Below the pieces are notes generated by a model. That model saw only the letters and a program-made list of their open reading frames with translations, was not told where the DNA came from and ran no database searches. 64,000 nt of DNA from Betaproteobacteria bacterium. Lineage in GTDB: Bacteria; Pseudomonadota; Gammaproteobacteria; Burkholderiales; SG8-39. Position 1 is the stretch's first letter, and each line of letters opens with the position of its first letter. Positions 3,502 through 55,385 of the stretch are shown piece by piece. Where the stretch lies: the NCBI GenBank assembly GCA_016195915.1, contig JACPYS010000063.1, forward strand, positions 10,388 to 74,387, read 5' to 3'. The translations under genes were made by a program, and so were the position numbers.

Positions 3502-3558
3502 AATTCTGCAAATAAGAACGCTGTTGCATAAGTCGCACTCGGCGACAAGGAGACAGAG

Positions 3559-3759: not shown

Positions 3760-3769
3760 GGAGCCCGCC

Positions 3770-6715: not shown

Positions 6716-6725
6716 GGAGAACGCC

Positions 6726-7355: not shown

Positions 7356-7603
7356 GGCGGCTGATCGCAGTAGCGGCGGTTGTATCCGCAATTCTCGGCT
7401 TGGCAGCCTGCGGCGAATCCGAACAGGTGATCGTCTACAAGCAGGGCAAATACCAGGGCAAGCCCGACGGCAAGCCGTGGGAGGGCGAGCCACTGCTTGT
7501 GACCGACGCCAAGTGGACCAAGGGCGACAAGGCGAGCTGGGAAGAAAGGATCAAACAGCGCAATCAGGGCCAGAACGAATACAAGCGGATTTACCAGCAA
7601 TAA
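7352..7603 (+). CDS. Small lipoprotein of unknown function
   Basis: ATGA overlap with the beta-subunit stop. MRRLIAVAAVVSAILGLAAC has a lipobox L-A-A-C. 83 aa, Lys/Gly/Gln-rich mature part. Confidence 0.65.
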   Translation: MRRLIAVAAVVSAILGLAACGESEQVIVYKQGKYQGKPDGKPWEGEPLLVTDAKWTKGDKASWEERIKQRNQGQNEYKRIYQQ

Positions 7604-7629
7604 GAACGGGCCCGCAGGAGAAAACTGAC

Positions 7630-11168: not shown

Positions 11169-11257
11169 GGCTCTCTCCTCTCAGAGGTGTGCCGCAGAGC
11201 TTGGACGCACCGGCGTCTTGGGAACCCGGGAGCCTGCGACCCCGGACTGTGCGTAGC

Positions 11258-24546: not shown

Positions 24547-25173
24547 TTACTCGAGCGACGCGTAACGCGGGAGCGGCGGCCGTTGCGCCTGGATGCGGCG
24601 CGATTGGACGATCAGCTCCTCCCACAGCCCGTCGGTGTCCTTGCGGAACACTGCGTCCAGGCTGGCCGGATGCACCGACCAGAGCCCGCGGTCGATTTCG
24701 CCCTTGAGCTCGCCCGGGCGCCACCCCACGTAACCGACGTAGTAGCGCGCGTCGTTGGGCATCTGCTCGATCACCTTGTCGATCGTATTCGCGCGAAACG
24801 ACAGGTACAGGTTGTGCATCACGGGCACCGAGCCCTCGCCCGGAGTGGCTTCGGACCTGACCAGCGCAACCAGCGCACCGCGCGAAAACGGCCCGCCGTA
24901 GAACACCGGATCGACCACCCTTTTCGACGGTTCGTGTTCCGGAAACAGGCTGGTGAGCGAGCGGCGTGTCGGGCGATTGACGATCACGCCCACGTGCCCT
25001 CCGTTGGGCATCGCCGTGACGACGAGAACGCTCTGGCGGTAATCGAGGTCGCGAAAGGCGGGATGCGCAACCAAAAACACCGCGCCATCGCCGGCGGACG
25101 GGGCCGACTGCGCCAGACATGCGCCGGGCATTGTCAGCACCAAGACAACCACTGCGAACAGAATGCGTATCAA
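24547..25173 (-). CDS. YqgE/AlgH (UPF0301/DUF179)-family protein with predicted signal peptide, paralog 1
   Basis: TTG start with GGAGG 5 nt upstream (GTG 25179 is an alternative). IRILFAVVVLVLTMPGACLAQS signal-like N-terminus. FYGGPFSRGALVAL...GYVGWRPGELKGEIDRGLW family core. Confidence 0.75.
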   Translation of the reverse strand: MIRILFAVVVLVLTMPGACLAQSAPSAGDGAVFLVAHPAFRDLDYRQSVLVVTAMPNGGHVGVIVNRPTRRSLTSLFPEHEPSKRVVDPVFYGGPFSRGALVALVRSEATPGEGSVPVMHNLYLSFRANTIDKVIEQMPNDARYYVGYVGWRPGELKGEIDRGLWSVHPASLDAVFRKDTDGLWEELIVQSRRIQAQRPPLPRYASLE

Positions 25174-25297
25174 GACCACCTCCGGCCCGGCACTCGGTGT
25201 GTCATTCAAGCGTAAATCCCCGCATCGCGCAAGCCGTTGCGCGTGAACGCTCATCCTCGCCCTGCAAATTTCGATGCGCGATGGACGCGCGTGGCTC

Positions 25298-25325
25298 TTG
25301 ACAGGCGCGCCCGGCGTGCTAATCT
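25298..25325 (+). promoter_or_regulatory. Near-consensus sigma70 promoter facing a plus-strand region with no ORF
   Basis: TTGACA (25298-25303), 16-nt spacer, TAATCT (25320-25325). Confidence 0.5.
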
Positions 25326-25330
25326 GCAAG

Positions 25331-25519
25331 CGGATCGTGCAAACGCAGATCCGGGCGAACTGTCCGGGGAACGCGAATCAAAGAGCCGCACTCAAGGAGG
25401 CGGCACCTTGCTACGATCCAAAATGCGGCATTCAGCTGCATGTAAATGTGCCGCTCTGGCGGCACTGCCCGGCGGTGCCGGGCCCAAAGCCCCGCTCCCA
25501 TGCGGGGCTTTTTGTTTTT
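25331..25519 (+). ncRNA. Candidate ~190-nt structured sRNA, antisense to the spacer and 3' end of the AlgH-like paralog 2
   Basis: Starts about 7 nt after the TAATCT box. Perfect hairpins GTGCCGC-tctg-GCGGCAC (25448-25465) and GCCCGGC-ggt-GCCGGGC (25467-25483). Terminator AAAGCCCCGC-6nt-GCGGGGCTTT plus TTGTTTTT (25486-25519). No plus-strand ORF closes before the terminator. Confidence 0.45.
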
Positions 25520-26103
25520 CGCGCCAGCGCGCGCCGCAGCAGCTCTTCCCATACGCCGTCCATGTCCTTGCGCAACACGATGTCCGCGTCAGCCGGCAGC
25601 ACATACCAGTCGTCGCGCTCCATTTCCGCTTCCAGCTGGCCCGGCGCCCAGCCGGAAAATCCAGCGTAGAGACGGTATTGCCGTCCGGGTTGGGCAAGCA
25701 GCATCCTGAGGTTGTCGGGATGCATGCTGAGGTACAGGCCGCGGCGCACCGGGAACGCCGGCGCGGGCGGCTGCGCGTCTGAACGAAATACCGCGATCAG
25801 CGCACGCTGCAGCACCGGCCCGCCGAAATAGACCGTTTCGCGGTAATTGGCCACGTCCGGTTCGCCGGGCATGAGTTCCGTCAGCGTGATTGGCGTGGGG
25901 CGGTTGATGATCACGCCGACGGTCTGCGAATCTTCGCTGCGCGTCACCAGTACCACGCTGCGCTGGAAATTCGGATCGACCAGGCCGGGCTTGGCTACGA
26001 GAAAGATCCCGTTGGGTCGCGCATCCTGGGCCGCGGCGGGTGCGGCAGCCGCAATCGATGCCAGTGCAAGCAGGGCGGCGACCCGCAGGGCGGAGGCAGG
26101 CAT
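25432..26103 (-). CDS. YqgE/AlgH (UPF0301/DUF179)-family protein with predicted signal peptide, paralog 2
   Basis: MPASALRVAALLALASIAAAAPAAAQD signal. FLVAKPGLVDPNFQRSVVLV...YFGGPVLQRALIAV...AGFSGWAPGQLEAEMERDDW. The C-terminal 30 aa read through the antisense terminator hairpin. Confidence 0.8.
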   Translation of the reverse strand: MPASALRVAALLALASIAAAAPAAAQDARPNGIFLVAKPGLVDPNFQRSVVLVTRSEDSQTVGVIINRPTPITLTELMPGEPDVANYRETVYFGGPVLQRALIAVFRSDAQPPAPAFPVRRGLYLSMHPDNLRMLLAQPGRQYRLYAGFSGWAPGQLEAEMERDDWYVLPADADIVLRKDMDGVWEELLRRALARKTKSPAWERGFGPGTAGQCRQSGTFTCS

Positions 26104-32433: not shown

Positions 32434-32462
32434 TTGACATTGCTCAAATCAGACGCTACAAA
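32434..32462 (+). promoter_or_regulatory. Promoter-like element upstream of gcdC (TTGACA-17-TACAAA); also reads as TTGA-N6-TCAA
   Basis: TTGACAttgCTCAAatcagacgcTACAAA read directly, 14 nt upstream of the AAGGGGA RBS. Ambiguous between a plain -35 box and an FNR/CRP-family half-palindrome. Confidence 0.4.
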
Positions 32463-32475
32463 AAAGGGGAAAACT

Positions 32476-32691
32476 ATGGCGCAAGAAGTCCGTGCCCCGC
32501 TGGCGGGGAACATCTGGGCCGTGCTGGTGGAAGTGGGTTCCAAGGTGGAGGAGGACGACGAGCTGGTCGTCATCGAGGCACTCAAGATGGAGAACCCCGT
32601 GTTCTCCCACTGTGCCGGCACGGTGAAGGAAATCATGGTGAAGAAAGGCGACAAGATCGACGATGACGGCCTGCTCATGCTGATCGAATGA
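32476..32691 (+). CDS. gcdC: Biotin carboxyl-carrier subunit (71-aa biotinyl domain only)
   Basis: AAGGGGA RBS. PLAGNIWAVLVEVGSKVEEDDELVVIEALKMENPVFSHCAGTVKEI is a biotinyl-lysine motif, (A/V)(L/M)KM. Confidence 0.8.
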   Translation: MAQEVRAPLAGNIWAVLVEVGSKVEEDDELVVIEALKMENPVFSHCAGTVKEIMVKKGDKIDDDGLLMLIE

Positions 32692-32725
32692 CGAACTGCC
32701 CGACCGGAGCGAAAGCGAGGCGATA

Positions 32726-33886
32726 ATGAATTTCGAGTTGACTGAGGATCAGCGGCTGATCCAGGAAACGGCGCGGCGCTTCGCCGCATCGGAAATCGCA
32801 CCGACGCTCGACGAGGAGGAGAGCAGGCACGAATTTCGGGCGGGCCGCGTCGCGCAGATGGGCAAGCTGGGATTTTTCTCCTGCGCCCTGCCCGAAGAGC
32901 TCGGCGGCAGCGGCATGGGGTTCATGGAGTCGGTGCTGATGTCCGAGCAGATCGGCAGGGTGTCGGCATCCTGGCGGCTGCCGTTCAACATGCAGAACCT
33001 GGGCCCTGCGCTCACGGTGACGAAATTCGGCAGCGAAGAGCAGAAGAATAAGTACGTCCCCGGCTGGGTCGCGGGCACGCAGCTCGGATTTTTCGCCATG
33101 ACCGAGCCCAACACCGGCTCGGATGTGGCCAGCATGAAGACCCACGCGATCGACAAGGGCGACCACTGGGAGGTCCACGGCAACAAGATGTGGATCTCGC
33201 AGGCGCACGTGGGCGATGCAGGCCTGTTGTACGCCTACACGGACCGGGAAAAGGGCAACAAGGGAATCACGGCGTTCATCATCGAGCCGAAAAAAATGAA
33301 GGGCTGCACCGCGCGCGCCATCGAGACCAAGCTCGGCCTGAAATGCGCGCCGACCGGTGAATTCGTGTTCGAGGGCATGAAGGTGCCGAAGGAGAACGTG
33401 CTCGGCAAGCCGGGCAGCGGATTCCAGATCTGCATGTGGCAGCTGAACCAGACGCGCCTGGGCTGTGCGGCCGGCGCGCTTGGTGTCGCCGGAGGGGCGC
33501 TGGACCTTGCCATCAACTACGCCAAGGAGCGCAGCCAGTTCGGCAAACCCATTTCCGAGCACCAGATGATCCAGGCGCAGGTCGCCGAGATGGTGGTGGA
33601 GCACCACGCCGCGCAGATGCTGGTGTATCGCGCGGCGTGGCTCAAGGACCATGGCAAGCCCAACCAATACGAGACTTCGGTCGCCAAGTACGCGGCGTCG
33701 GAAGCCGCGGTGCACGCCGCGAACGAGTGCATGAAGATTTTCGGTTCCTACGGGTATTCGACCGAGTATCCGGCGGAACGCTTCTACCGCGACGCAAAGT
33801 CCCTGCAGATCGTGGAGGGCACTTCCAACATCCAGAAGATCATCATCTCGGGCATGGCTTTCGGCACCACGCCCAACCGCGAGTAA
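32726..33886 (+). CDS. Acyl-CoA dehydrogenase; candidate non-decarboxylating glutaryl-CoA dehydrogenase
   Basis: 386 aa ACAD fold (FAMTEPNTGSD, catalytic LQIVEGTSNIQ). Val363, not Tyr, precedes the catalytic Glu. Sandwiched between gcdC and gcdA. Confidence 0.85.
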   Translation: MNFELTEDQRLIQETARRFAASEIAPTLDEEESRHEFRAGRVAQMGKLGFFSCALPEELGGSGMGFMESVLMSEQIGRVSASWRLPFNMQNLGPALTVTKFGSEEQKNKYVPGWVAGTQLGFFAMTEPNTGSDVASMKTHAIDKGDHWEVHGNKMWISQAHVGDAGLLYAYTDREKGNKGITAFIIEPKKMKGCTARAIETKLGLKCAPTGEFVFEGMKVPKENVLGKPGSGFQICMWQLNQTRLGCAAGALGVAGGALDLAINYAKERSQFGKPISEHQMIQAQVAEMVVEHHAAQMLVYRAAWLKDHGKPNQYETSVAKYAASEAAVHAANECMKIFGSYGYSTEYPAERFYRDAKSLQIVEGTSNIQKIIISGMAFGTTPNRE

Positions 33887-33891
33887 ACGCA

Positions 33892-35625
33892 ATGCGACCG
33901 TATTTCGAAAAGATGCCTGGCTTCGGCAAGCCGCTCAAGGACAACCGCAAGGCGCGCTCGAAGGAAAGCCGCGCGAAGCTCGAAGCCGTAGAGGCGGAAA
34001 TCGCGGTCGCGCGCAAAGCGAAGGAAAACGTCGGCATCCCCGCCGCCAAGATCAACGAGCGGGGCTCGTGGACCGTGTGGCAACGGCTCGAATACCTGGT
34101 CGACCCCGGCACCTGGCAGCCGCTGCACAGCATCTTCAACCCCGAGGACAACGAGGAGGGCACGACCAACGTCGTCGACGGCCTGGGCAAGATCTCGGGA
34201 CGCTGGGCCGTCATCATCGGCTTCGACAACAAGGTGCTCGCAGGCGCGTGGATTCCGGGGCAGGCCGATAACGTGCTGCGCGTGACGAACCTCGCGAAGC
34301 GGCTGAACATTCCACTCGTGTGGCTGGTGAACTGCAGCGGAGTCAAGCTTCCGGACCAGGAGAAGTTCTACGCCGACCGCCGCGGTTCCGGTACGCCGTT
34401 CTTCCGCCACGCCGAGCTGGAGCAGGCGGGCATCCCTGTCCTCGCCGGTATCTACGGCACCAATCCTGCCGGTGGCGGCTATCAGGCGATCACGCCGACG
34501 ATCCTGATCGCACACAAGGACTCGAACATGGCCGTCGGCGGTGCAGGCATCGTCTCGGGCATGTCGCCAAGGGGCGGATTCGATGTGGAAGGGCTCGAGC
34601 AGCTGATCTCGGTTACGCGCGACTTCAAGGAGCGCCCGCCGGGACGGGTCGATGTCCATTACAACGAGACCGGATTCTTCACGCGCGTGTGCGACGAGGA
34701 AAAGGGCGTGCTCGACGGCCTCAAGGAATACATGCGCGCGATTCCGGCCTACGACCCGATGTTCTTCCGGGTGGCGGAACCGGCCGAGCCGGCGCTCGCG
34801 CCGGATGACCTTTACCACCTGCTGCCGTTCAATCAGAAGGAGACTTACTCGTTCGACGAAATTCTCGCGCGGCTGGTGGACGGCAGCGAACACATGGAAT
34901 TCCGGCCCGACTACGGTCCCGAGATCTACGCGGGGTTGGTGAAGATCGACGGCATGGCGGTCGGCGTGATCGGCAACCGGCAGGGCGTACTGCCCAAGGG
35001 CTATCCGGAGTATGCGGATTACCCCGGCATCGGCGGCAAGCTCTACCGCCAGGGGCTGATCAAGATGAGCGAGTTCGTGACCCACTGCAGCCGCGACCGG
35101 GTGCCGGTCGTCTGGTTTCAGGATACGAGCGGCATCGATGTGGGGGACATCGCGGAGAAGGCTGAACTGCTCGGCCTGGGTTCGACGCTGATCTATTCGA
35201 TTCAGCAGACGGACGTGCCGATGATGCTGGTGGTGCTGAGGAAGGGCAGCGCGGCGGCCCACTACATCATGGGCGGGCCCACTGCGAATCGCCACAACGC
35301 ATTTACATTGGGCACGGCTGCAACGGAGATCTACGTCATGCACGGCGAGACGGCGGCGGTGGCGACGATGGCGCGGCGTGCGGTGAAGGACAAGGACTCG
35401 GGCAAGCCGCTCGAACCGATCGCGGAGAAGATGAACGAGATCGCGAAAAAGTATTACGACACTTCACGCCCCGCTTACTGCGCGCGGCACGGATTCGTCG
35501 ACGAGATCGTGGACCTGAAGGCGCTGCGCGGGTATCTCAAGGCGTTCGCCGGAGCGGTTTACCAGAACCCGACGTCAACCTGCCCGCGGCACCAGATGCT
35601 GTTGCCGAGGATTATCAAGGGCTGA
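33892..35625 (+). CDS. gcdA: Glutaconyl-CoA decarboxylase alpha subunit (carboxyltransferase)
   Basis: 577 aa. MRPYFEKMPGFGKPLK..., FDNKVLAGAWIPGQADN, NCSGVKLPDQEKFY, GIYGTNPAGGGY and GGKLYRQGLIKMSEFV are colinear with my memory of Acidaminococcus GcdA. Confidence 0.82.
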   Translation: MRPYFEKMPGFGKPLKDNRKARSKESRAKLEAVEAEIAVARKAKENVGIPAAKINERGSWTVWQRLEYLVDPGTWQPLHSIFNPEDNEEGTTNVVDGLGKISGRWAVIIGFDNKVLAGAWIPGQADNVLRVTNLAKRLNIPLVWLVNCSGVKLPDQEKFYADRRGSGTPFFRHAELEQAGIPVLAGIYGTNPAGGGYQAITPTILIAHKDSNMAVGGAGIVSGMSPRGGFDVEGLEQLISVTRDFKERPPGRVDVHYNETGFFTRVCDEEKGVLDGLKEYMRAIPAYDPMFFRVAEPAEPALAPDDLYHLLPFNQKETYSFDEILARLVDGSEHMEFRPDYGPEIYAGLVKIDGMAVGVIGNRQGVLPKGYPEYADYPGIGGKLYRQGLIKMSEFVTHCSRDRVPVVWFQDTSGIDVGDIAEKAELLGLGSTLIYSIQQTDVPMMLVVLRKGSAAAHYIMGGPTANRHNAFTLGTAATEIYVMHGETAAVATMARRAVKDKDSGKPLEPIAEKMNEIAKKYYDTSRPAYCARHGFVDEIVDLKALRGYLKAFAGAVYQNPTSTCPRHQMLLPRIIKG

Positions 35626-35771
35626 GGGCTTTCAGATCGAGCGCTCGCTCCAAGCACACGGCCCCGTGGTGCCTAGATCGTGCCGGTGTGTCGGTGCCTA
35701 TTCCGTTTAACCTGCTTGAGGAATAAAAGGGTTGGGCGTAGTGTGTCCGTGATCGGACCCGCTCTTGGGGG

Positions 35772-35830
35772 GATTACGGGCGCTTGCGATTGTGGCGTCG
35801 GCCCTCAACGGCAAGCGATACTCCGTAATC
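35772..35830 (+). other. 59-nt imperfect long hairpin upstream of the DUF4160 gene
   Basis: GATTACGG-g-CGCTTGC-(23 nt)-GCAAGCG-atact-CCGTAATC. Flanked by and containing the direct repeat CGATTGT (35787-35793, 35830-35836). Confidence 0.4.
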
Positions 35831-35913
35831 GATTGTCCACCATGGGCGCTACAACCGGTTGCAGGCGACGCGCATGAAGCCGCGTGTGCCTGAACTGGAA
35901 CGTTGAGAAAACC

Positions 35914-36171
35914 ATGCCCGAACTGTCGCGATTTCTCGGCATCGTGATCGGGATGTTCTACAATGAACATGGTGTGGCGCACTTCCACGCGGTCTACGGG
36001 GACCACGAGATTTCGGTTGAAGTGGAAACCGGGACCATTCATGGAAATTTTCCTCCACGAGCGCTGCGACATGTGCTTGAGTGGTCCGCGCTTCATAGGC
36101 AAGAATTGCTGGACGACTGGGAACTGGCGCGTCAGGGACAGCCGCTCAACCGCATCACACCGTTGGAGTAG
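35914..36171 (+). CDS. DUF4160 domain protein
   Basis: MPELSRFLGIVIGMFYNEHGVAHFHAVYGDHE.... 85 aa, noticeably lower GC than neighbours. Confidence 0.85.
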   Translation: MPELSRFLGIVIGMFYNEHGVAHFHAVYGDHEISVEVETGTIHGNFPPRALRHVLEWSALHRQELLDDWELARQGQPLNRITPLE

Positions 36172-36175
36172 AACC

Positions 36176-36421
36176 ATGGATTACCATATTCTCGAAGCGC
36201 GGTACGTCGGTGGACACGTGGTGTGGCTCAGGTTTCGTGACGGTCTCGCCGGCGAAATTGATCTGGCCACTTCGCTGAAGGGTCCGGTGTTCGAACCGCT
36301 CCGGGACGTCACTTTTTTTCGGGCGTTCACGATTCATCCGGAATTCCACACGTTGGTGTGGCCAAACGGAGCGGATTTTGCCCCGGAATACTTGCACGAA
36401 AACGTGCGGGTCACGGTCTGA
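36176..36421 (+). CDS. DUF2442 domain protein
   Basis: Starts 4 nt after the DUF4160 stop. ...VVWLRFRDGLAGEIDL...WPNGADFAPEYL. 81 aa. Usual partner of DUF4160. Confidence 0.85.
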   Translation: MDYHILEARYVGGHVVWLRFRDGLAGEIDLATSLKGPVFEPLRDVTFFRAFTIHPEFHTLVWPNGADFAPEYLHENVRVTV

Positions 36422-36471
36422 CTTCGTGGGGAGCGAACGCGCCGGACGCGTCGTCCACCCCGGTGCAGCTG

Positions 36472-36920
36472 CTATCGCTTCCCGTCCATCAGCACGAACG
36501 CGATCCGCGCAGTCTGCTGCGAGCGGTTCGCCCATGCGTGATTGGTGCCGCGCTGGATCAGGACGTCGCCGGCACGCATCAGCGTCTCGCCCTCGTCCAT
36601 CACCGCCCAGATCTCGCCTTCGAGGATGATCGCGTAGTCGACGGTGTCGGTGCGGTGCATTCCCGGGTGCGCGCCGTCACGCTTGTCGTGCGTCGCGTCG
36701 CTGAAATGCGCAGGATCGTGCCGATCGCTGGCGGCAGGATGCCGTTGTGCGCAGGCACCGTGTCGGACGCGCCGATCCGGACCAGCGATTCCTCGGTGCG
36801 TCAGACGCTGGCGGCGCGGTAGCCCGGACGCTCGGCGACGGCGCGGATGGCGCTTGCCGGCGCGTCCTCGAGCACGCGCGAGTGCCCCTCGGCGTCGTCC
36901 CCGGTGACGATGCGCCGGAT
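36472..36920 (-). pseudogene. Decayed cupin-domain gene (in-frame TGA, 1-nt frameshift, no canonical start)
   Basis: N-terminal frame IRRIVTGDDAEGHSRVLEDAP...RAASV-TGA(36801-36803)-RTEESLV...GTILRI. It shifts at the A3/T3 run 36704-36706 into FSDATHDKRDGAHPGMHRTDTVDYAIILEGEIW...NHAWANRS. TGA sits where the family has Trp (VWRT). Confidence 0.7.
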
Positions 36921-37022
36921 GGCGGGCAGCGCGGCGATGCGGCTGCTGCTTGTTACTGCCAGGCCGCGTAGCTAATCAGGAGGGCGTAGAGCGCAGCAAC
37001 ATGTTTGCGCATCATGCTGTCC

Positions 37023-38009
37023 TCACTTGCCGGCGAGCGCCATGCCGCGTTCATAGAAGCCCGGATCAAGGTAGCGCTCCGGCGACGGCGGATTGCCGCC
37101 CCACTGTCCCTCGATCTCGGCGCGCAGCGCAAGCACATTGCGGAAACCTGCGACATCCAGCTTTGCATCCGGCGAGAGGCCGAACGCCGGGTCCATCAGT
37201 GTTTCGTAGGTGCGTGCCGCGACGTCGGGCTCGAGCTTGAGCCGTTCGCTCAGCATCCGCAGGCAGTCGTCGCGATTCGCGGGATCGCGCACCCAGCGGG
37301 TCGCATCAATATAGCCTGCGACGTACCGTTCCAGCACGCCGTCATTGGCGCGCGCCCAGGGCCGCATCACGAACGCGCCTGTCGCCTGGTAGGGGCCGAG
37401 CAGGTCGATGGCGCGGCCGAGGCTTTTCATACCTTCCTTCTGCGCCGCGATCGAGAACGGCGGGTTGAGGATCGACGCCGCGTTGGCCCGGTCCTCCTTC
37501 ATCGCCCTTGCCCGGAACAGCGTGCTGCCGACGGGTTTGAGGTTGTAGTCGCCCGCCTTGAGTCCCGCGTTCAGCAGGAGCTTCTTCAACTGCAGCGCGT
37601 AGGCAGTGTTCGGCGCATCCACGATCACGGTACGGCCGCGCAGGTCTGCCACCGAAGCGACATGCGCCTGCACGAAAAGCTCGTTCATGCTGCTGTCGCC
37701 ACCCATCACGATGACGACATCCTTGCCTGCCAGCTCGACCATCGCCACCGCGTTGTCCACGGCGGCATGCGCCACCTCGAAATCCCCGTTGGCAAGGCCG
37801 TCGCGCAGTTCGACCGAGTTCTGCGTGAACAGCAGTTCGACTGCGAGACCGCGCCTGTTGAAGAATCCCTTTGCCAGCGCCGCATACAGCGGCAGGTTCT
37901 GCGCGCCGGGAAATACCTTGACGCGCAACTTCGCCGCATCCTGCGCCAGCGCCGTGCCGGCCAGCAGGCAGAGCAATCCGGCGAGCACATCGTGTAACCA
38001 TCGATTCAT
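37023..38009 (-). CDS. Orphan NMT1/THI5-like (NitT/TauT-type) ABC substrate-binding protein
   Basis: Signal peptide LLCLLAGTALAQD. 328 aa PBP type-2 fold pattern. No permease or ATPase gene adjacent. Confidence 0.75.
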   Translation of the reverse strand: MNRWLHDVLAGLLCLLAGTALAQDAAKLRVKVFPGAQNLPLYAALAKGFFNRRGLAVELLFTQNSVELRDGLANGDFEVAHAAVDNAVAMVELAGKDVVIVMGGDSSMNELFVQAHVASVADLRGRTVIVDAPNTAYALQLKKLLLNAGLKAGDYNLKPVGSTLFRARAMKEDRANAASILNPPFSIAAQKEGMKSLGRAIDLLGPYQATGAFVMRPWARANDGVLERYVAGYIDATRWVRDPANRDDCLRMLSERLKLEPDVAARTYETLMDPAFGLSPDAKLDVAGFRNVLALRAEIEGQWGGNPPSPERYLDPGFYERGMALAGK

Positions 38010-38060
38010 TTCTTGTAGCCCTCCGGATTGGCGAACCCCTGCAGCAAGCCGCTCCCGATC

Positions 38061-39209
38061 CTAGATCAGCCCCATGCCTTTCAGCACCGAGAGCATCACC
38101 GCCGCAGCCACCACCGAACCGATCTGGCCGCCGGTGTTCGCGCCGGCCGCGTGCATCAGCAGGTAGTTCCTCTTGTCGGCGCGCAGCCCCTCCTGGTGCA
38201 CGACGCGGGCGGCCATCGGATACGCCGAGATCCCCGCGGCCCCGATCAGCGGATTGATTTTCCCGCCGCTGAGCTTGCACATGAGCTTGCCGAACAGCAC
38301 GCCAGCCACCGTATCCAGGCATATGGCGATGAAGCCCATGCCGAATATGGCCATGGTCTCGGGCTTGAGGAAGGCGTGGCCTTCCATGGTGCCGCCGATG
38401 GCGAGGCCGAGGAACAGGGTCACGACGTTGGCGATCTCGTTTTCCGAGGCCTTGGTCAGGCGGGCGACCACGCCGCACTCGCGCATGAAGTTGCCCAGCA
38501 TGATGGTGCCCATGAGCGGCAGCCCCTTGGGCGCGAGGAGGCCCGTCACCAGCGTCACCACGATGGGAAACAGGAGTTTGGTCTGGGGTGAGACGCTGCG
38601 TTTGATCGCGCCCATCCTCACCACGCGCTCCGCAGGCGTGGTCAGCACCCGCATGATCGGCGGCTGGATGATCGGCACGAGAGCCATGTAGGAATACGCC
38701 GCCACCGAAATCGGCGCGAGCAGTTGCGGCGCGTACTGGGACGCCACGTAAATGGCGGTGGGTCCGTCGCAGGCTCCGATCACGGCGATGCTGACCGCTT
38801 CGAGCGCGGGGAAACCCAGCGCCAGCGCGATCAGCAGCGTCAGGAAGATGCCGAACTGGCCGGCGGCGCCGAACAGCAGGATCTTCGGATTCTCCAGCAG
38901 TGGGGCAAAGTCGATCATCGCTCCGATGCCGACGAAGATGAGCAGCGGGAACAGTTCGTTGGCGATCCCCATGTCGTAGAGAAGCTTGAGCAGGCCACCC
39001 GCCTCCCCCAGTTCGCTCATGGGGATGTTCACCAGCACGCAGCCGAAGCCGATGGGAACGAGCAGCAGCGGTTCGACCTCTTTCTTGACGCCGAGATAGA
39101 GCAAGGTGCCGCCGACCAGCAGCATGATCACATTGGGCAGGCCATGCTGAAACAGGAAATTGAAACCGGCCATCATTCCGGACAGGCCCGCGAGGATGGC
39201 GTCAAGCAT
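38061..39209 (-). CDS. gcdB: Na+-translocating decarboxylase beta subunit (OadB/GcdB/MmdB family)
   Basis: 382 aa polytopic. LLIFVGIGAMIDF, GACDGPTAIY, NPLIGAAGISAYPMAARV and LLMHAAGANTGGQIGS are hallmark beta-subunit motifs. Confidence 0.9.
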   Translation of the reverse strand: MLDAILAGLSGMMAGFNFLFQHGLPNVIMLLVGGTLLYLGVKKEVEPLLLVPIGFGCVLVNIPMSELGEAGGLLKLLYDMGIANELFPLLIFVGIGAMIDFAPLLENPKILLFGAAGQFGIFLTLLIALALGFPALEAVSIAVIGACDGPTAIYVASQYAPQLLAPISVAAYSYMALVPIIQPPIMRVLTTPAERVVRMGAIKRSVSPQTKLLFPIVVTLVTGLLAPKGLPLMGTIMLGNFMRECGVVARLTKASENEIANVVTLFLGLAIGGTMEGHAFLKPETMAIFGMGFIAICLDTVAGVLFGKLMCKLSGGKINPLIGAAGISAYPMAARVVHQEGLRADKRNYLLMHAAGANTGGQIGSVVAAAVMLSVLKGMGLI

Positions 39210-39354
39210 TCTTCTTCTCCCCGCTGTCGCTCGCGAGCGGATAGATCTTCTTCAGCAGGTTGATCACCAGGGCCAGCACCCAGACCGTGAGGAAGGTTCC
39301 TCCCATGCCTACGATCATCAGCGTGAAGCCGAAAGTCCATTTGTCCATTTCCAT
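39202..39354 (-). CDS. gcdD: 50-aa OadG/GcdD-like single-TM decarboxylase anchor subunit (absent from ORF track)
   Basis: GGGAG RBS, ATG 39354. MEMDKWTFGFTLMIVGMGGTFLTVWVLALVINLLKKIYPLASDSGEKKNA. Stop overlaps the gcdB start (AATGCTTGA). Confidence 0.65.
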   Translation of the reverse strand: MEMDKWTFGFTLMIVGMGGTFLTVWVLALVINLLKKIYPLASDSGEKKNA

Positions 39355-39380
39355 GCGTTACTCCCGGGGAAGCGATGGTT

Positions 39381-40580
39381 TCAGTGAAATGCCTGGATGC
39401 CCGTGATCGCGCGCCCGAGGATCAGCGCGTGGATGTCGTGCGTGCCTTCGTAAGTATTCACCGCCTCGAGGTTCACCAGATGGCGGGCGACGCCGAACTC
39501 ATCCGAAATTCCGTTGCCGCCCATCATGTCGCGGGCGAGCCGCGCGATGTCGAGCGACTTGCCGCAGGAATTGCGTTTCAATATCGAGGTGATGTCGGGT
39601 GCGTCGGTGCCCTCGTCCTTCATGCGCCCCAGGCGCAGGCAGCCCTGCAGGCCGAGAGCGATCTCGGTCTGCATGTCGGCGAGCTTTTTCTGGATCAGCT
39701 GGTTGGCCGCCAGCGGACGCCCGAACTGCTTGCGATCGAGAACGTACTGCCTCGCGCGGTACCAGCAGTCCTCCGCCGCTCCGAGCGTGCCCCAGGCAAT
39801 GCCGAAGCGCGCGGAATCCAGGCAGGTCAGCGGGCCTTTGAGACCGCGCACATCGGGGAACGCGTTTTCTTCCGGGCAGAATACTTCGTCCATGACCACT
39901 TCGCCCGTGATCGAGGCGCGCAGGCCCACCTTGCCGTGGATCACGGGCGCGGAAAGCCCCTTCGCCCCCTTGTCGAGCACGAAGCCGCGTATCGCGCCTT
40001 CCTCGTCCTTCGCCCACACCATGAACACGTCCGCGATCGGCGAGTTGGAAATCCACATCTTGGAGCCCGAAAGGCGGTAGCCGCCGGCCACTTTCTTCGC
40101 CCGCGTGATCATCGACCCCGGATCGGATCCGTGGTTGGGTTCGGTGAGGCCGAAGCATCCGATCCATTCGCCCGTGGCGAGCCTGGGAAGATACTTCTCC
40201 CGGGTCGCCTCGTTGCCGAACCGGAAGATCGGGACCATCACCAGCGAACTCTGCACGCTCATCATCGAACGGTAGCCCGAGTCCACGCGCTCGATTTCCC
40301 GTGCGATCAGGCCGTAACTGACGTAGTTCAATTCCGGCCCGCCATAGCGCGCCGGGATGGTGGGACCGAGCAGGCCGAGTTCACCCATTTCGCGGAAGAT
40401 CGCCGGATCGGTCTTTTCCAGCCGAAACGCCTGGAGTACGCGGGGCGCAAGCTGCTTCTGGCAATAGGCGTTTGCCGCGTCGCGAACCATCCGCTCGTCG
40501 TCGCTGAGCTGGTCGTTGAGCAGCAGCGGGTCGTCCCAGGCGAACTGGGCCCTCGCCTTGCGCTTCTTCGCTGTGGTCAT
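39381..40580 (-). CDS. gcdH: Glutaryl-CoA dehydrogenase, canonical (decarboxylating-type signature)
   Basis: GAGGAG RBS. 399 aa. [41 protein letters not shown] is near-identical to the recalled GCDH C-terminal signature (Tyr377-Glu378). Confidence 0.92.
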
Positions 40581-40632
40581 GCGGCTCCTCGTGGGAAACT
40601 GGCCTTTTTAGCCCAGCCCCGTCCCCGCGATA

Positions 40633-40646
40633 TTGAGGTGCATCAA
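40633..40646 (-). promoter_or_regulatory. FNR/Anr-type box TTGAGgtgcATCAA upstream of gcdH
   Basis: 9/10 match to TTGAT-N4-ATCAA. Centre lies 41.5 bp upstream of the TSS predicted from the -10-like TAAAAA (40610-40605), leaving an 18-nt leader with GAGGAG. Confidence 0.5.
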
Positions 40647-43703: not shown

Positions 43704-45026
43704 TCAGGAGAACAGCAGCTTCGGCAGCCAGAGCGCCAATGCGGGGAAGGCCAATACCAGCGCGAGGCCGACAATCTGCAGAACCATGAACTGCATCATG
43801 CCGGCATAGATGTCCTTCAGGCTCCAGTCCGGCACCACGCCCTTCAGGAAGTATGCCGACAACGCGACCGGCGGCGAAAGCCACGCGGTTTGCAGGCACA
43901 CTGCCACCAGCGTGCAGAACCAGACCAGGTCGATCCCCATCTTCTGCACCAGCGGCAGAAGGATCGGCACCACGATCAGCACGATTGGCACCCATTCGAG
44001 CGGCCAGCCGAGCACGAAGATCACGCCGAGTATGAGGATCAGCATGACCGTGGGGGGAAGGCTCAGCTGCAACAGCCATTCGGCGATCAAGGTGGCGCTT
44101 CCCAGGCGCGAAAATACTGCGCCGAAAAAGTTCGATGCCGCCACCAGCAGCAGGATCATGCTCGAGACCTCGAGCGTGGACCACATCGCCAACTTGAATT
44201 TCGCGAACGTGATGCTCCGGTAGGCGAGCGTGAGCAGAAGCACCGCAAACGCACCAACCGCGCCCGCATCCGTAGGCGTTGCGATGCCCCACAGGATCAC
44301 ACCGAGCGTGGCGGCGATGACCACCGCCACCGGCACCACGCCGATCAGCAGCTCCTTCACCGCCACCCAAAGGGTTGCCGGGTGCTCTTCGAGCGGCAGC
44401 GCGGGGCCAAGGGAAGGGTTGAAGTAGCACCGGGCGAGGGTGTACACGATGTACAGGAATGCCAGCAGCAGCCCGGGAAGGACCGCCGCCGCGAACAGAT
44501 GCGTCGCCGGCACGCCGACCGCGGGGCCCATCACGATCAGCATCACCGACGGCGGGATGAGAATGCCGAGCGTGCCGCCCGCGGCGATTGAGCCCGCCGA
44601 CATGCGCACGTCGTATTTGCTGCGCGTCATTGCCGGGGCTGCCATTACGCCGAGCAGCGTGACTGAAGAACCGACGATACCGGTCGCCGCGGCGAAGATG
44701 GTGGCGGTGATCAGCACCGCGAGGTAAAGCGAACCGCGCACGGGCGCGAGCAGCAGCTGCACGCCGCGAAACAGCCGGTTCATCAGCCCGGATTGCTCGA
44801 GCAGGTAGCCCATGAAAAGGAAGAACGGCACCGAAGCGAGGGTGGTCTCCTTCATGACCGAGAAGAACTGCAGGGTCATCAGGTAGAACACCTGCTGGCC
44901 GAGCGCGTAGTAGCCGAAGCCGAGCGCCACCGTGATCAGCGTGAAGGCGATCGGAAAGCCGATGAAGATCGCACCGAACAGCACCACCAGCGATACGAAG
45001 CCGAGCAGCTCGTGGCTCACGGCCAT
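43704..45026 (-). CDS. dctM: TRAP transporter large permease
   Basis: ATG 45026 (MAVSHELLGFVSLVVLFGAIFIGFPIAF). 440 aa, about 12 TM. Start overlaps the dctQ end by 10 nt. Confidence 0.88.
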   Translation of the reverse strand: MAVSHELLGFVSLVVLFGAIFIGFPIAFTLITVALGFGYYALGQQVFYLMTLQFFSVMKETTLASVPFFLFMGYLLEQSGLMNRLFRGVQLLLAPVRGSLYLAVLITATIFAAATGIVGSSVTLLGVMAAPAMTRSKYDVRMSAGSIAAGGTLGILIPPSVMLIVMGPAVGVPATHLFAAAVLPGLLLAFLYIVYTLARCYFNPSLGPALPLEEHPATLWVAVKELLIGVVPVAVVIAATLGVILWGIATPTDAGAVGAFAVLLLTLAYRSITFAKFKLAMWSTLEVSSMILLLVAASNFFGAVFSRLGSATLIAEWLLQLSLPPTVMLILILGVIFVLGWPLEWVPIVLIVVPILLPLVQKMGIDLVWFCTLVAVCLQTAWLSPPVALSAYFLKGVVPDWSLKDIYAGMMQFMVLQIVGLALVLAFPALALWLPKLLFS

Positions 45027-45544
45027 TCTCCGTGCAGCGCAGCCCAGCAGCTCTTGAGCAGCTCCGAGAAACCTTGCACGAGGAGCAGCACCACCGCCAG
45101 GAACATGAAGCCCTTGACCGGATAGATCACCGGCATCCACGGGCTCGAGACCACGCGCTCGGACTGGCGCAGCGAGACGAGGAAAAAGTCCCAGTTGACG
45201 TAGGCGAATACCCCCAGTCCGGGAAAGAAGAAAAGCACATAGCACAGCGCGTCGACAGTCCCCTGGAGGCGCGGCGACCAGTTGGTGTAGAAGCTGTCGG
45301 TGCGGATGTGGCCCTTGCGCTGCAGGGTAAATGCCGATCCGAGCATGAAAAACACGCCATAGAGCATGTAGGTCATGTCGTAGGCCCAGATGGTGGGCTC
45401 GTCGAAGACATAGCGCGAGATCACCTCGTAGACGAGGCTGCCGACCATCGGCAGGATCAGCCAGGCAGCGGCCTTGCCGGACCAGATGCTGATCGCGTCG
45501 AGCGCCGTGATGGTGCGTGCGAGGGCGGGCGGAAGAGAGCTCAT
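45017..45544 (-). CDS. dctQ: TRAP transporter small permease
   Basis: ATG 45544 (MSSLPPALART...). 175 aa, 4 TM. HIRTDSFY motif. Confidence 0.82.
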   Translation of the reverse strand: MSSLPPALARTITALDAISIWSGKAAAWLILPMVGSLVYEVISRYVFDEPTIWAYDMTYMLYGVFFMLGSAFTLQRKGHIRTDSFYTNWSPRLQGTVDALCYVLFFFPGLGVFAYVNWDFFLVSLRQSERVVSSPWMPVIYPVKGFMFLAVVLLLVQGFSELLKSCWAALHGEWP

Positions 45545-45613
45545 GGATTCACGGACAAAAAAGGGGGCGCCTCGCGGGCGCCCCATTTCAGGCGGAAATG
45601 CGCGTAGTGCCGG

Positions 45614-46756
45614 TCACTTCTTCGCCGGGGCCGCGGCAGCCTTGCCTTCGACCGCGCCGCTCTTGATCGCAGCGTTGCCGAGGTTGGAGTAAAGGTCGTT
45701 GATCTTCGTCCAGTACGGAACCACCAGCTTCGCGAAGTTGCGCTGCGAGTCGAGCACCTGCTTGAAGAATGGATCCTTGCTGGAGTAGCGCTCGAGCACC
45801 ACGTTGGTGGCGCGCACGAACTCCGGGTAGAAGTCGGCCGGCGTATCGAGGATCTGTACCTTGTGCTCTTCGCGCAGCTTCTTTACCGCCACCGCGTTGC
45901 GATACACGTTGTAGGTGTAGGTCTCGGTCATCGACGCCATCGCCGCGGTGCGCATGATTTCCTGCAGGTCCGGCGAGAGCTTGTTCCACGCCGTCTTGTT
46001 GATCAGCACTTCGCCGATGTCGGTGGACTGGTGCAGGCCCTGCAGGTAGTAGAACTTCCACACCGTATGCAGGCCGAGGTTCATGTCGTCTGCCGGGCCG
46101 ATCCACTCGGCGGCATCGATCGTGCCGCGCTGCGCCGCCGGGACGATGTCGCCGCCGGGCATCGCGACCGCCGAGACGCCCATCTCCTTGAATATTTCGC
46201 CCGTGATCCCGGGCGGCGAGCGGTATTTCATTTTCTTGAAGTCCGCCGTGTCCTTGATCGGGCGCTTGAACCAGCCGAGGGGATCGGGGCCCATCGGCTG
46301 AACGAACAGCGGCTCCACGTTGACCTTGAGCACGTCGGCATACAGCTTGCGATACAGCTCGTATCCGCCGCCTTCGAATATCCACGCCACGTGCGAAAGC
46401 TGGTCGAGCCCGACACCGGCGCCCGCCATCGGGTTCGAGAACAGGCCGGCGGCCGGGTGCTTGCCCGACCAGTAGTGCGTCCACGCGTAACCCGCCTCGA
46501 CCACGCCCTTGTCCACCGCATCGAGTATCTCGAACGCAGGAACGACTGCGCCGTCGGGCAGCACTTCGATCTTGATGCGGCCCGCGGACATCTTGTCCAC
46601 GCGGTCGGCGTATTTCTTCAGCAGCTCGAAGTAGATGCTGGCCGCGGGCACCGCGGTCTGCAGGCGCATCTTCACCTGTTGCGCGGACACGCTGGCGGTA
46701 ACCAGCAGCAACGAAGCCGCGCAGGCGAGCGTTCTCACTGACATTCTCTCGAACAT
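45614..46756 (-). CDS. dctP: TRAP transporter substrate-binding protein (DctP type)
   Basis: GGAGGA RBS 6 nt before ATG 46756. Signal peptide. 380 aa. Only the C-terminal third of the 1019-aa track ORF is real. Confidence 0.85.
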   Translation of the reverse strand: MFERMSVRTLACAASLLLVTASVSAQQVKMRLQTAVPAASIYFELLKKYADRVDKMSAGRIKIEVLPDGAVVPAFEILDAVDKGVVEAGYAWTHYWSGKHPAAGLFSNPMAGAGVGLDQLSHVAWIFEGGGYELYRKLYADVLKVNVEPLFVQPMGPDPLGWFKRPIKDTADFKKMKYRSPPGITGEIFKEMGVSAVAMPGGDIVPAAQRGTIDAAEWIGPADDMNLGLHTVWKFYYLQGLHQSTDIGEVLINKTAWNKLSPDLQEIMRTAAMASMTETYTYNVYRNAVAVKKLREEHKVQILDTPADFYPEFVRATNVVLERYSSKDPFFKQVLDSQRNFAKLVVPYWTKINDLYSNLGNAAIKSGAVEGKAAAAPAKK

Positions 46757-53721: not shown

Positions 53722-55329
53722 TTACGCAGATTCCGCCTCCGCCGCCAAGCGCCGCCGCAACTCCGCCTTGGCAATCTTCTCCAGCGTGGCGCGCGGAAAA
53801 TCCTCCACCATCCGGATCTCGTGCGGTCGCTTGAAATCGGCGAGCTGCGTGGCGCAGGCGGCGGCGACGCAATCGGACAGATCGGGCGGCGCCCCCGCCG
53901 CCGGCAGCACGAACGCGACCGGAACTTCGTCCAGCATCGGGTGCTTCTTCGCCACGATCGCGCACTCGCGCACGCCCGGCACGAGGAGGATCACGCGCTC
54001 GATCTCCGACGCGGCGACGTTTTCGCCACCGACCTTGAGCATGTCCTTGGTCCGGTCGCCGAACTGGATCGCGCCGTCCTCCAGCAGGTTGACGCGATCG
54101 CCGGTACGGAACCAGCCCTCGGGGTCGAAGCTGTCCGCACTCGCCTGCGGATTGCCGAGGTATTCCCTGAACAGCGACAGCCCGCGTACGCCGCGGATCA
54201 TCAGATTGCCGCTGCCGCCGGGCTCGACGCGGCGCGATTCGCGCACCGGCACTGCATCGTCTTCCACAATTGCGATTTCGTATTCGGGCGCCGGGCGGCC
54301 GATCGCCATGGGGCGGTTCGGCAGCTGCGGGCTGGCGACGATGCCGTGGGTGATGGTTTCGGTCATGCCCCACCAGCCGATGGTCTTGACGCGAAAATGC
54401 GCATCGGTTGGCGGTTCGCTCACCGCGCTGCCCCAGAGGCGGTAATGATGCTCGGGCGGCACATGGTGTTCCATCAGCGCCTTGACGCAGAACGGAACCA
54501 GCGATGTCCAGGTGCAGCGATGCTTGCGCGACGCCGGCCAGAAACGGCTCGCCGAGAAGCGCGGCTGGATGACCGCCGTGGCACCGACCCACAGGCAGGC
54601 CAGCACCGAATACGCCTGTGCGTTGGTGTGGTAGAGCGGCAGATAGACCAGGTGCACGTCCTCGGGCCTGAGGTCCTCGTGCACAGCGTTGATGCGCGCA
54701 CCCCACAGCGCATTGGCATGCGTCCACAGCACGCCCTTCGGCCGCGAAGTGGTGCCGGAGGTGTACTGCACGCTGCACGGCGCGAGCGGATCAGGTGCGC
54801 GCCGCGGCGGCGCATCGCCATCGAGCCTCTTGAAATCCGAATCGCGATCCGGCGAGCGGGCCGGCGCCGCGCCATTGTCGGTGGCAGTGACCGAAAGCCA
54901 GCGCAGCGCCCTGCAGTTCGCGGAGACCAGCTCGGCGAATTTCGGCTGGGTGACGCCGCCGACCGCGCCGCAGTGCGCGGCGTAATAGGCGAGTTCGTCG
55001 GCTGCCGCGCGGGCATTGGTGGTGACCGCGACCGCGCCGATCCATGCGCAGGCATACCAGGCAAGCAGCGCTTCCGCGCAGTTGTCGAGGTGGATCAAGA
55101 TGCGGTCGCCGGCTTTGACGCCGCGATGGAGAAGTCCGCCTGCAATGCGGCCGATGCGCGCATGGAACTCGCCGTAGGTGATGGTCTCGCCCGGCTCCTC
55201 GAACGGCTCCCACACGAGGAACGGGTGGTCGCGCCGCGTCGCAGCTCGAGTCTTCACCAGCCATGCGACGTCCAGGCCGGAGAACGGATGCGGTTCGTCT
55301 TGTGACAAGATGCGTGGCATAAGATTCAT
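53722..55329 (-). CDS. AMP-dependent acyl-CoA synthetase/ligase (CaiC-like)
   Basis: ATG 55329. YTSGTTSRPKGV (AMP motif I), WGMTET, GWFRTGD, KVGGENV. 535 aa. Confidence 0.88.
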   Translation of the reverse strand: MNLMPRILSQDEPHPFSGLDVAWLVKTRAATRRDHPFLVWEPFEEPGETITYGEFHARIGRIAGGLLHRGVKAGDRILIHLDNCAEALLAWYACAWIGAVAVTTNARAAADELAYYAAHCGAVGGVTQPKFAELVSANCRALRWLSVTATDNGAAPARSPDRDSDFKRLDGDAPPRRAPDPLAPCSVQYTSGTTSRPKGVLWTHANALWGARINAVHEDLRPEDVHLVYLPLYHTNAQAYSVLACLWVGATAVIQPRFSASRFWPASRKHRCTWTSLVPFCVKALMEHHVPPEHHYRLWGSAVSEPPTDAHFRVKTIGWWGMTETITHGIVASPQLPNRPMAIGRPAPEYEIAIVEDDAVPVRESRRVEPGGSGNLMIRGVRGLSLFREYLGNPQASADSFDPEGWFRTGDRVNLLEDGAIQFGDRTKDMLKVGGENVAASEIERVILLVPGVRECAIVAKKHPMLDEVPVAFVLPAAGAPPDLSDCVAAACATQLADFKRPHEIRMVEDFPRATLEKIAKAELRRRLAAEAESA

Positions 55330-55385
55330 CTTTCTTCCGAGCGCCAGTGTCGCATGGCGCAAGCGCCTGGAAAAGGGAAACACCG

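Follow-up and report, generated by a model that had tools for sequence, protein, structure and literature searches.

A 64,000-nucleotide (nt) stretch of betaproteobacterial DNA (contig JACPYS010000063.1 of assembly GCA_016195915.1, positions 10,388 to 74,387), hereafter the window, encodes two types of glutaryl-coenzyme A (CoA) dehydrogenase together with four components of a predicted glutaconyl-CoA decarboxylase (Gcd) Na+ pump, divided between two convergent operons: gcdC-acd-gcdA on the plus strand and gcdH-gcdD-gcdB on the minus strand. We consider it likely that these genes form one module, which oxidizes glutaryl-CoA to crotonyl-CoA by two parallel routes and answers to a single low-oxygen-type regulator. 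By the direct route, which would conserve no energy, a single active site of GcdH, in which Tyr377 and Arg104 surround the terminal carboxylate, would both dehydrogenate and decarboxylate glutaryl-CoA. By the second, energy-conserving route, Acd, which has Val363 for the Tyr but keeps Arg84, would only dehydrogenate and would free glutaconyl-CoA; GcdA would then transfer the carboxyl group to the biotin of a free 8-kDa GcdC, and the membrane pair of GcdB and a miniature GcdD would decarboxylate the carboxybiotin and export Na+. GcdH would be the ever-present route, to which the plus-strand operon could be added to recruit the pump. The open reading frames (ORFs) of the window were taken from a six-frame list, and this list, together with family and structure matches, bore out the account that a preliminary description of the DNA had given of all six ORFs.

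Two types of glutaryl-CoA dehydrogenase

GcdA was used to scan a genome collection in which each species is represented once; this gave more than 540 relatives, of which the best 80 loci (73-89% identity) were kept for comparison. They come from the Betaproteobacteria (Sterolibacterium, Ramlibacter, and Burkholderiales), Alphaproteobacteria (Rhodoplanes and Xanthobacteraceae), Gammaproteobacteria, Acidobacteriota, Myxococcota, and others, and individual loci among them carry labels such as L007 and L018. The plus-strand dehydrogenase gene of the window, acd (32726..33886), encodes a protein of 386 amino acids (aa) with three ACAD Pfam domains, for which the best NCBIfam family is NF045552 (GlutCoADH_Des, "glutaryl-CoA dehydrogenase Acd") at 439.4 bits, the next family scoring 360. 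The best solved structure is 3mpi (363 bits, 47% identity), the non-decarboxylating enzyme of Desulfococcus multivorans, followed by SCAD (311 bits, 41% identity) and the GcdH-type enzymes (198 bits); identity to the GcdH of the window is 28%.

Acd was aligned with 3mpi, human SCAD, the window GcdH, the Burkholderia pseudomallei GcdH, and 67 homologs linked to GcdA in the related loci. Arg84, Val363 (GTG, 33812-33814), and Glu364 of Acd share columns with Arg87, Val366, and Glu367 of 3mpi, with the catalytic Glu directly after the Val, and this Arg/Val/Glu triad is invariant across the 67 homologs. Human SCAD has a Gly in the Arg column and a Tyr before the Glu. With 3mpi as the top structure and Arg84 present, Acd does not side with the butyryl- or isovaleryl-CoA dehydrogenases lacking the Arg that the preliminary description had allowed for. 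The D. multivorans enzyme (3mpi/3mpj) is the best characterized homolog, with matching key residues, and this homology, the triad, and the linkage to gcdA, gcdB, and gcdC described below support the assignment of Acd to the non-decarboxylating type.

The minus-strand dehydrogenase gene, gcdH (39381..40580; 399 aa), is the first gene of its operon. By homology its product is a classical decarboxylating GcdH, matching B. pseudomallei GCDH (3gnc) with 739 bits and 83% identity and human GCDH (1sir) with 552 bits. Its key residues are Arg104, Tyr377 (TAC, 39452-39450), and Glu378, and the window GcdH has the Tyr-Glu-Gly motif and the carboxylate-binding Arg in common with the B. pseudomallei (3gnc/3eom) and human (1sir) enzymes. 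The roles of Tyr373, Glu374, and Arg97 have been described for the B. pseudomallei enzyme, and in the decarboxylating enzyme the Tyr hydrogen-bonds the Arg and touches the carboxylate that leaves as CO2 (PMC3169403). The claim that the two dehydrogenases are of different types, Acd nearest the non-decarboxylating enzyme and the minus-strand protein nearest B. pseudomallei GCDH, thus stands; both codons had been placed correctly, and the two discriminating residues do fall in one alignment column, that of 3mpi Val366, directly before the catalytic Glu. The Tyr-to-Val exchange at this position reportedly emerged from the work of Wischgoll et al. in 2010 as the conserved discriminator between decarboxylating and non-decarboxylating enzymes.

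A predicted minimal decarboxylase and its recurrence in related loci

The carboxyltransferase (alpha subunit) gene gcdA (33892..35625, plus strand) encodes 577 aa homologous to the Acidaminococcus fermentans GcdA (1pix), which it matches over its full length with 725 bits and 55% identity across 576 aligned positions. The two solved GcdA proteins score 725 and 718 bits, whereas all other carboxyltransferases reach at most 136, the score of the next family, AccD1. On these scores the protein is of the GcdA type and set apart from the propionyl-, methylmalonyl-, and methylcrotonyl-CoA enzymes; it did not group with the methylmalonyl- or propionyl-CoA enzymes, an outcome that the preliminary description had thought damaging.

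Upstream of acd lies gcdC (32476..32691, plus strand; PF00364, 65 bits), which encodes a free-standing biotin carrier of 71 aa. The gene had been said to start at 32434, but the TTG there is only the mechanical start of the open frame; relatives keep the N-terminus MA(Q/E)EV(R/L)APLAG from the ATG at 32476 onward, and we take that ATG as the true start. The Lys of the EALKME motif is the predicted biotinylation site and aligns with the biotinyl Lys of EAMKME in the gamma chains of methylmalonyl-CoA decarboxylase, the first Met flanking that Lys being replaced by Leu. GcdC covers only positions 63-119 of the 132 in the MmdC model. With gcdC first on the plus strand, the statement that each operon is headed by a dehydrogenase applies to the minus strand, where gcdH leads, and not to the plus strand.

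The membrane beta subunit gene, gcdB (38061..39209, minus strand), encodes 382 aa matching PF03977 with 487 bits and TIGR01109 with 426 bits. GcdB is the predicted Na+ translocator, which would also decarboxylate carboxybiotin. It shares 52% identity with Salmonella OadB, and its D148, Y174, N319, G323, S328, and R335 correspond to OadB D203, Y229, N373, G377, S382, and R389, residues needed for Na+ binding or function (PMC7274780). Equivalents of OadB E40, R304, N311, and N412 are also kept, as read from the alignment. Preceding gcdB is a gcdD-like gene (39202..39354, minus strand) for a mini subunit of 50 aa (NF040909 OadG_rel_small, 52.9 bits, cut-off 25). It consists of one membrane helix and a short charged tail of about 15 residues, and matches only positions 3-43 of 76 in PF04277 (OAD_gamma), where its 26.1 bits are just under the cut-off of 27. 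The pump had been called complete. All four Gcd components are present, but the word needs a caveat, as the delta-like subunit and the carrier are truncated relative to the family models, to a helix with its tail and a lone biotinyl domain. GcdA may dock in some other way, or the small carrier may shuttle by diffusion between a soluble GcdA and the core in the membrane.

The same set of genes recurs among the relatives. An Acd-type dehydrogenase adjoins GcdA in 67 loci, nearly always with a small biotin carrier, whose gene adjoins that of the dehydrogenase in most related loci, and most loci that extend far enough also show a beta subunit gene nearby. Many loci hold the whole module in one operon. 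In about 25 loci the gene for the beta subunit is part of the gcdA operon, and in more than 15 betaproteobacterial ones it adjoins gcdA in convergent orientation; a gammaproteobacterial and acidobacterial group has the order gcdA-gcdB-gcdC-acd in one operon. Judged by this recurrence, the trio of carrier, dehydrogenase, and GcdA genes did not come to lie near a beta subunit gene by chance. In most loci with a beta subunit gene, that gene is preceded by a one-helix hydrophobic ORF of 40-65 aa, and a short delta-like subunit with a bare carrier looks typical of the dehydrogenase-linked form of the pump.

The beta subunits linked to near-identical GcdA and dehydrogenase genes fall into at least three sequence classes, about 80%, 45-50%, and 30% identical to the GcdB of the window, each with its own type of small hydrophobic ORF (L004, L005, L010, and L019-L041). 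In the alphaproteobacterial locus L019, a biotin synthase gene (7488-8594; BioB-like, with a CxxxCxxC motif) is divergent from an acd-gcdA-gcdC-gcdB operon, and an FNR-type box lies between the two, 4 nt from the biotin synthase start codon.

The relatives also bear on why gcdH stands ahead of the membrane subunits. The convergent layout of the window, including gcdH-gcdD-gcdB, is found in L007, L018, and L048, with a gcdH-gcdD gap of less than 10 nt in the first two (tblastn coordinates). In five betaproteobacterial loci (L022, L024, L026, L029, and L031), gcdD-gcdB occurs without gcdH. L043 has all module genes on one strand and a convergent gcdH, and in L009 and L010 gcdH lies on the other side, divergent from a LysR gene that precedes gcdC-acd-gcdA (L009, 1403-2362; L010, 7385-8299, in each case between gcdH and gcdC). 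In Pseudomonas and Azoarcus, GcdR occupies a like position beside gcdH; next to the gcdH of the window there is no LysR (GcdR-type) gene. Six loci in which no gcdH precedes gcdD (L009, L013, L022, L024, L031, and L044) share a strong sigma-70-like promoter, TGGACGCT-N15-ATATAAT, ahead of gcdD. The same six have a conserved gcdD leader ending in CTGAAAGCAC.

The gene immediately ahead of gcdH or gcdD, and on their strand, encodes a thiolase in L018, L026, and L029 and a 3-hydroxyacyl-CoA dehydrogenase in L007, and a MaoC-dehydratase/phosphate-acyltransferase fusion (MaoC hydratase) is encoded downstream of gcdB in L018. These lower-pathway genes are at 14375-15898 in L007, 11746-13179 and 15916-17121 in L018, and 13262-14467 in L026. 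Judged by gene content, the minus-strand operon of the relatives is a variable crotonyl-CoA lower-pathway operon made up of 3-hydroxyacyl-CoA dehydrogenase, thiolase, sometimes gcdH, and then gcdD-gcdB. The window keeps only gcdH-gcdD-gcdB and a non-conserved binding-protein gene, and gcdH would stand ahead of the membrane subunits because the operon is a trimmed lower-pathway operon. With such a history no physical or mechanistic link between GcdH and the pump is needed, and the gene order that the preliminary description found counter-intuitive is explained.

This lower-pathway origin and the FNR-type boxes described below are the new points. The enzymes are of known kinds, since the trio and beta subunit recur in most of the 80 loci and many Acd relatives (87-90% identity) are already labelled "glutaryl-CoA dehydrogenase (non-decarboxylating)" by JGI. 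Related proteins in metagenomes number more than 7,000.

FNR-type boxes and the readings they allow

The minus-strand genes are tightly packed. The gap between gcdH and gcdD is 26 nt and holds a GGGAG ribosome-binding site, and the gcdD stop overlaps the gcdB start (ATGCTTGA). A promoter and terminator scan gave counts not above those in shuffled sequence and had no hit of any kind, terminator-like sites included, between gcdH and gcdD. We infer from this packing that gcdH, gcdD, and gcdB are co-transcribed. With gcdD-gcdB behind gcdH, the pump would not be made without GcdH; GcdH would be made whenever the membrane part of the pump is made, and only gcdC-acd-gcdA could be switched separately.

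FNR/ANR/Dnr/FixK sites have the palindrome TTGA-N6-TCAA as their core. The 64 kb contain exactly two copies of it, one per promoter region, against 0.39 expected (two or more in 4 of 100 shuffles). Together the intergenic regions ahead of the operons cover 341 of the 64,000 bases, and we calculate a probability of about 1e-5 for one random site to fall in each. Box 1, the CRP/FNR-type palindrome TTGACATTGCTCAA at 32434..32447, is centered 35.5 nt upstream of the gcdC ATG and overlaps a sigma-70-like promoter, TTGACA-17 nt-TACAAA. Box 2, TTGATGCACCTCAA (40646-40633), is centered 59.5 nt before the gcdH ATG and, with one mismatch, is the best match in the window to TTGAT-N4-ATCAA. It is followed after 22 nt by the -10-like hexamer TAAAAA (40610-40605), and the whole (40605..40646, minus strand) is a predicted class II FNR-type promoter of gcdH-gcdD-gcdB. 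Transcription would start near 40598, leaving a leader of 18 nt that includes a GAGGAG ribosome-binding site, and the center of Box 2 would be 41.5 nt from that start, the classical class II activator spacing, a fit by spacing alone.

The relatives were surveyed for the box in the 260 nt upstream of the operon. It is present exactly in 18 of 72 loci (25%) against 0.7% of random 260-nt segments, and with at most one mismatch in 33 (46%) against 8.6%. The layout of box, 22 nt, and hexamer is found before gcdC in L018 and L011 and before acd in alphaproteobacterial loci. Three loci (L032, L043, and L049) have a box at the proximal position of Box 1 plus a distal box; in the window, the end of an SDR gene fills the distal region upstream of gcdC. 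Direct and inverted repeats common to both operons gave chance-level matches only, and no riboswitch or other RNA element turned up when the gcd region was scanned against Rfam. Taken together, the position and enrichment of the boxes suggest that both operons are probably under one FNR-family regulator, most simply as a response to low oxygen.

Several points weigh against the two-route module as we read it. Acd misses the NCBI equivalog cut-off of NF045552, which is 470 bits, and carries at NCBI only a generic name, a 100%-identical protein being labelled "acyl-CoA dehydrogenase family protein" [Betaproteobacteria bacterium]. ThnO shares 45% identity with the D. multivorans dehydrogenase and yet acts on 2-carboxycyclohexylacetyl-CoA (PMC11659651), a different dicarboxyl-CoA, so that likeness of sequence leaves the substrate of Acd unfixed. 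As to assembly of the complex, GcdC has neither a linker nor an N-terminal domain, and mini-GcdD has no counterpart of residues 61-84 of the 84-aa OadG, which hold the alpha subunit on the beta-gamma core (PMC7274780). As to regulation, Box 1 is too near the gcdC start for class II activator spacing, the Gammaproteobacteria and Acidobacteriota loci have no such box upstream of the operon, and no CRP/FNR-family regulator gene was identified in the window. The host, finally, is an uncultured betaproteobacterium seen as a metagenome-assembled genome, and the reading is drawn from its sequence. The strongest argument that Acd would feed glutaconyl-CoA to the decarboxylase is the conserved partnership with gcdA, gcdC, and gcdB.

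The preliminary description had proposed an either/or switch between the routes, which would have GcdH serve under oxic or energy-rich conditions, Acd and the pump under anoxic or energy-poor ones, and the two operons oppositely regulated. The literature ties GcdH to facultative anaerobes and Acd with Gcd to obligate ones (PMC5852087), and the DNA offers some handholds as well: Box 2 is at activator distance, Box 1 overlaps the -35-like TTGACA, where a bound protein could repress, and relatives without gcdH in the operon drive gcdD-gcdB from the strong sigma-70-like promoter with no box. We nevertheless regard the switch as unlikely, because gcdD-gcdB follow gcdH so closely, with no terminator-like site between, that an internal promoter or RNA processing would be needed; because the same box type in both promoter regions points to co-regulation rather than opposite control; and because most alpha- and betaproteobacterial relatives have a box at activator spacing ahead of their acd operon. 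It is quite improbable that Acd and GcdA act on some other dicarboxyl-CoA pair, such as a substituted glutaryl-/glutaconyl-CoA or a ring-cleavage intermediate, and leave GcdH as the sole glutaryl-CoA enzyme. The score of Acd under the NF045552 cut-off, the substrate of ThnO, and an unrelated catabolic cluster directly upstream (amidohydrolase, two FAH-family proteins, and SDR) would all fit such a reading, but GcdA aligns end to end with the characterized A. fermentans enzyme at 55% identity, the triad is that of the D. multivorans enzyme and invariant in the family, the upstream cluster is conserved beside the operon in none of the 80 loci, and repeated linkage with gcdH, LysR, thiolase, and 3-hydroxyacyl-CoA dehydrogenase genes points to glutaryl-CoA and crotonyl-CoA metabolism.

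Least probable, and to our minds hardly credible, are a reverse reaction, in which Na+ drives the carboxylation of crotonyl-CoA and the product is reduced to glutaryl-CoA as proposed for Syntrophus, and service of gcdD-gcdB to a decarboxylase of oxaloacetate or methylmalonyl-CoA with its genes elsewhere, which would make their place beside gcdA a coincidence. Beta subunits of the Oad, Mmd, and Gcd pumps are indeed close homologs that family models cannot separate (PMC7274780), and the visible part of the genome is 64 kb only. Yet the beta gene keeps company with gcdA, in its operon or convergent and adjacent to it, in the some 25 and more than 15 loci counted above, the window ORFs scanned yielded no OadA- or MmdA-like gene, and linkage with thiolase and 3-hydroxyacyl-CoA dehydrogenase would fit catabolism in a respiring organism. 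The plus-strand operon was also considered as part of the larger upstream cluster (IclR, flavin reductase, Bug, RidA, amidohydrolase, two FAH-family proteins, and SDR), and this was rejected because in none of the 80 loci is any of these genes conserved beside the operon.

An elaboration of the two-route module, in which an oxygen-sensing FNR-type regulator induces a compact Na+ pump, with a free 8-kDa carrier moving between soluble GcdA and a minimal core of GcdB and mini-GcdD, in respiring Alpha- and Betaproteobacteria, and GcdH, always co-expressed, is an uncoupled overflow valve, is put forward tentatively and is itself doubtful. GcdH would then be used when the Na+ gradient or a build-up of glutaconyl-CoA stalls the coupled route. 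The D. multivorans enzyme was reportedly found by Wischgoll et al. in 2009 to be inhibited by glutaconyl-CoA, and such inhibition of the Acd type would, speculatively, let GcdH take the flux when the pump stalls. If this were true, GcdH and the pump would be a pair of uncoupled and coupled branches, like the coupled and uncoupled respiratory dehydrogenases.

Neighboring genes, known systems, and significance

The gene 51 nt downstream of gcdB encodes an orphan NMT1/SsuA-type periplasmic binding protein (37023..38009, minus strand; PF09084 and PF13379). It may be co-transcribed with gcdB, but none of the 80 related loci encodes a protein 40% or more identical to it, and it is probably a passenger. 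The 2.4-kb junction between the convergent gcdA and gcdB (35884-38009) holds three unrelated items: this gene, a toxin-antitoxin-like pair of DUF4160 (DhiT-like) and DUF2442 genes (35884-36171 and 36176-36421), and a cupin pseudogene at about 36472-36960 on the minus strand with one in-frame TGA and one frameshift. In L007, L009, L026, L031, L044, and L048 the gcdA-gcdB gap is less than 200 nt, so the junction of the window appears to collect insertions.

Elsewhere in the window, 560-8679 holds an FDH3-type formate dehydrogenase cluster with a 779-aa polyferredoxin, a molybdopterin alpha subunit, an FDH3 beta subunit (NF038355, 344 bits), and a cytochrome b gamma subunit. The sole Rfam match of the window is a chrB-b RNA motif (RF03086, 53 bits) at 11194-11245 on the minus strand, upstream of a chromate transporter gene (9828-11168), and two AlgH-like (DUF179) genes lie in tandem at 24547-26103 on the minus strand. 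Genes for a TRAP transporter, an Na+/H+ exchanger, an acyl-CoA ligase, and a family III CoA-transferase (43704-46700, 17934-19139, 53722-55398, and 57525-58715) are farther off and might supply or use the substrates of the module or the Na+ gradient; the best family of the CoA-transferase is succinate-glutarate CoA-transferase, at 219 bits far under the 750-bit cut-off. The window ORFs scanned included no genes of the benzoyl-CoA or pimeloyl-CoA pathways.

By homology every protein of the module is an ortholog of a characterized enzyme, and the combined chemistry would be that of D. multivorans and other strict anaerobes; what is distinct here is the host lineage, the classical gcdH within the module, the predicted FNR-type control, and the compact carrier and delta subunits. 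In D. multivorans, according to Wischgoll et al. in 2009 and 2010, the dehydrogenase is said to be followed by a separate biotin-dependent, membrane-bound, Na+-dependent glutaconyl-CoA decarboxylase. The present module differs from that system in its betaproteobacterial host, in having gcdH in the same module, and in the FNR-type boxes in both promoter regions. GcdABCD of A. fermentans has the same subunit logic of carboxyltransferase, beta pump, biotin carrier, and small membrane subunit, but there the glutaconyl-CoA comes from hydroxyglutarate fermentation, whereas here a dehydrogenase would supply it; the window also differs in its 71-aa carrier, a bare domain, and its 50-aa delta-like helix without the cytoplasmic tail region. 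The A. fermentans gcd genes, too, lie in two operons, going by the title of Braune et al. 1999. Compared with the classical GcdH enzymes, the one in the window has an FNR-type box ahead of its gene and is predicted to be co-transcribed with Na+ pump subunits that it does not need.

In Geobacter bemidjiensis, Gbem_1452-1454 encode a predicted non-decarboxylating dehydrogenase, GcdA, and a biotin-domain protein, and the dehydrogenase-gcdA pair, adjacent as here, is predicted to replace the decarboxylating GDH (PMC2996986). G. bemidjiensis is without the membrane subunits and no Na+ coupling is predicted for it, whereas in the window the beta and small subunits are present and intact. The oxaloacetate decarboxylase Na+ pump of Salmonella and Klebsiella (beta3-gamma3, 6iva) has a similar beta subunit and is a precedent in facultative anaerobes, although the carboxyltransferase and substrate differ. 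In the literature, our coverage of which is incomplete, we found no description of the module in Proteobacteria outside the strict anaerobes; an acd-gcdBC contig from a nitrate-reducing benzene culture belongs to Peptococcaceae, not Proteobacteria.

A rule stated in the literature assigns the decarboxylating GcdH to facultative anaerobes and the non-decarboxylating enzyme with its Na+ pump, which saves them a little more energy, to obligate anaerobes (PMC5852087; see also PMC2996986). The locus described here and its relatives, more than 540 at one genome per species, break that rule: the energy-saving route appears to be common in lineages that are not regarded as strict anaerobes, often beside gcdH. 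The finding also bears on annotation, given the generic name of Acd at NCBI. Cultured carriers such as Ramlibacter lithotrophicus RBP-1 (L010) make the two-route idea directly testable. If the route is functional, it would add a Na+-coupled, energy-conserving step to the breakdown of lysine, tryptophan, glutarate, pimelate, and benzoate by soil and groundwater bacteria, and would probably operate under low oxygen. Should regulation by FNR with GcdH as overflow also prove true, the rule that facultative anaerobes use GcdH alone would fail for a group that is large and abundant in the environment.

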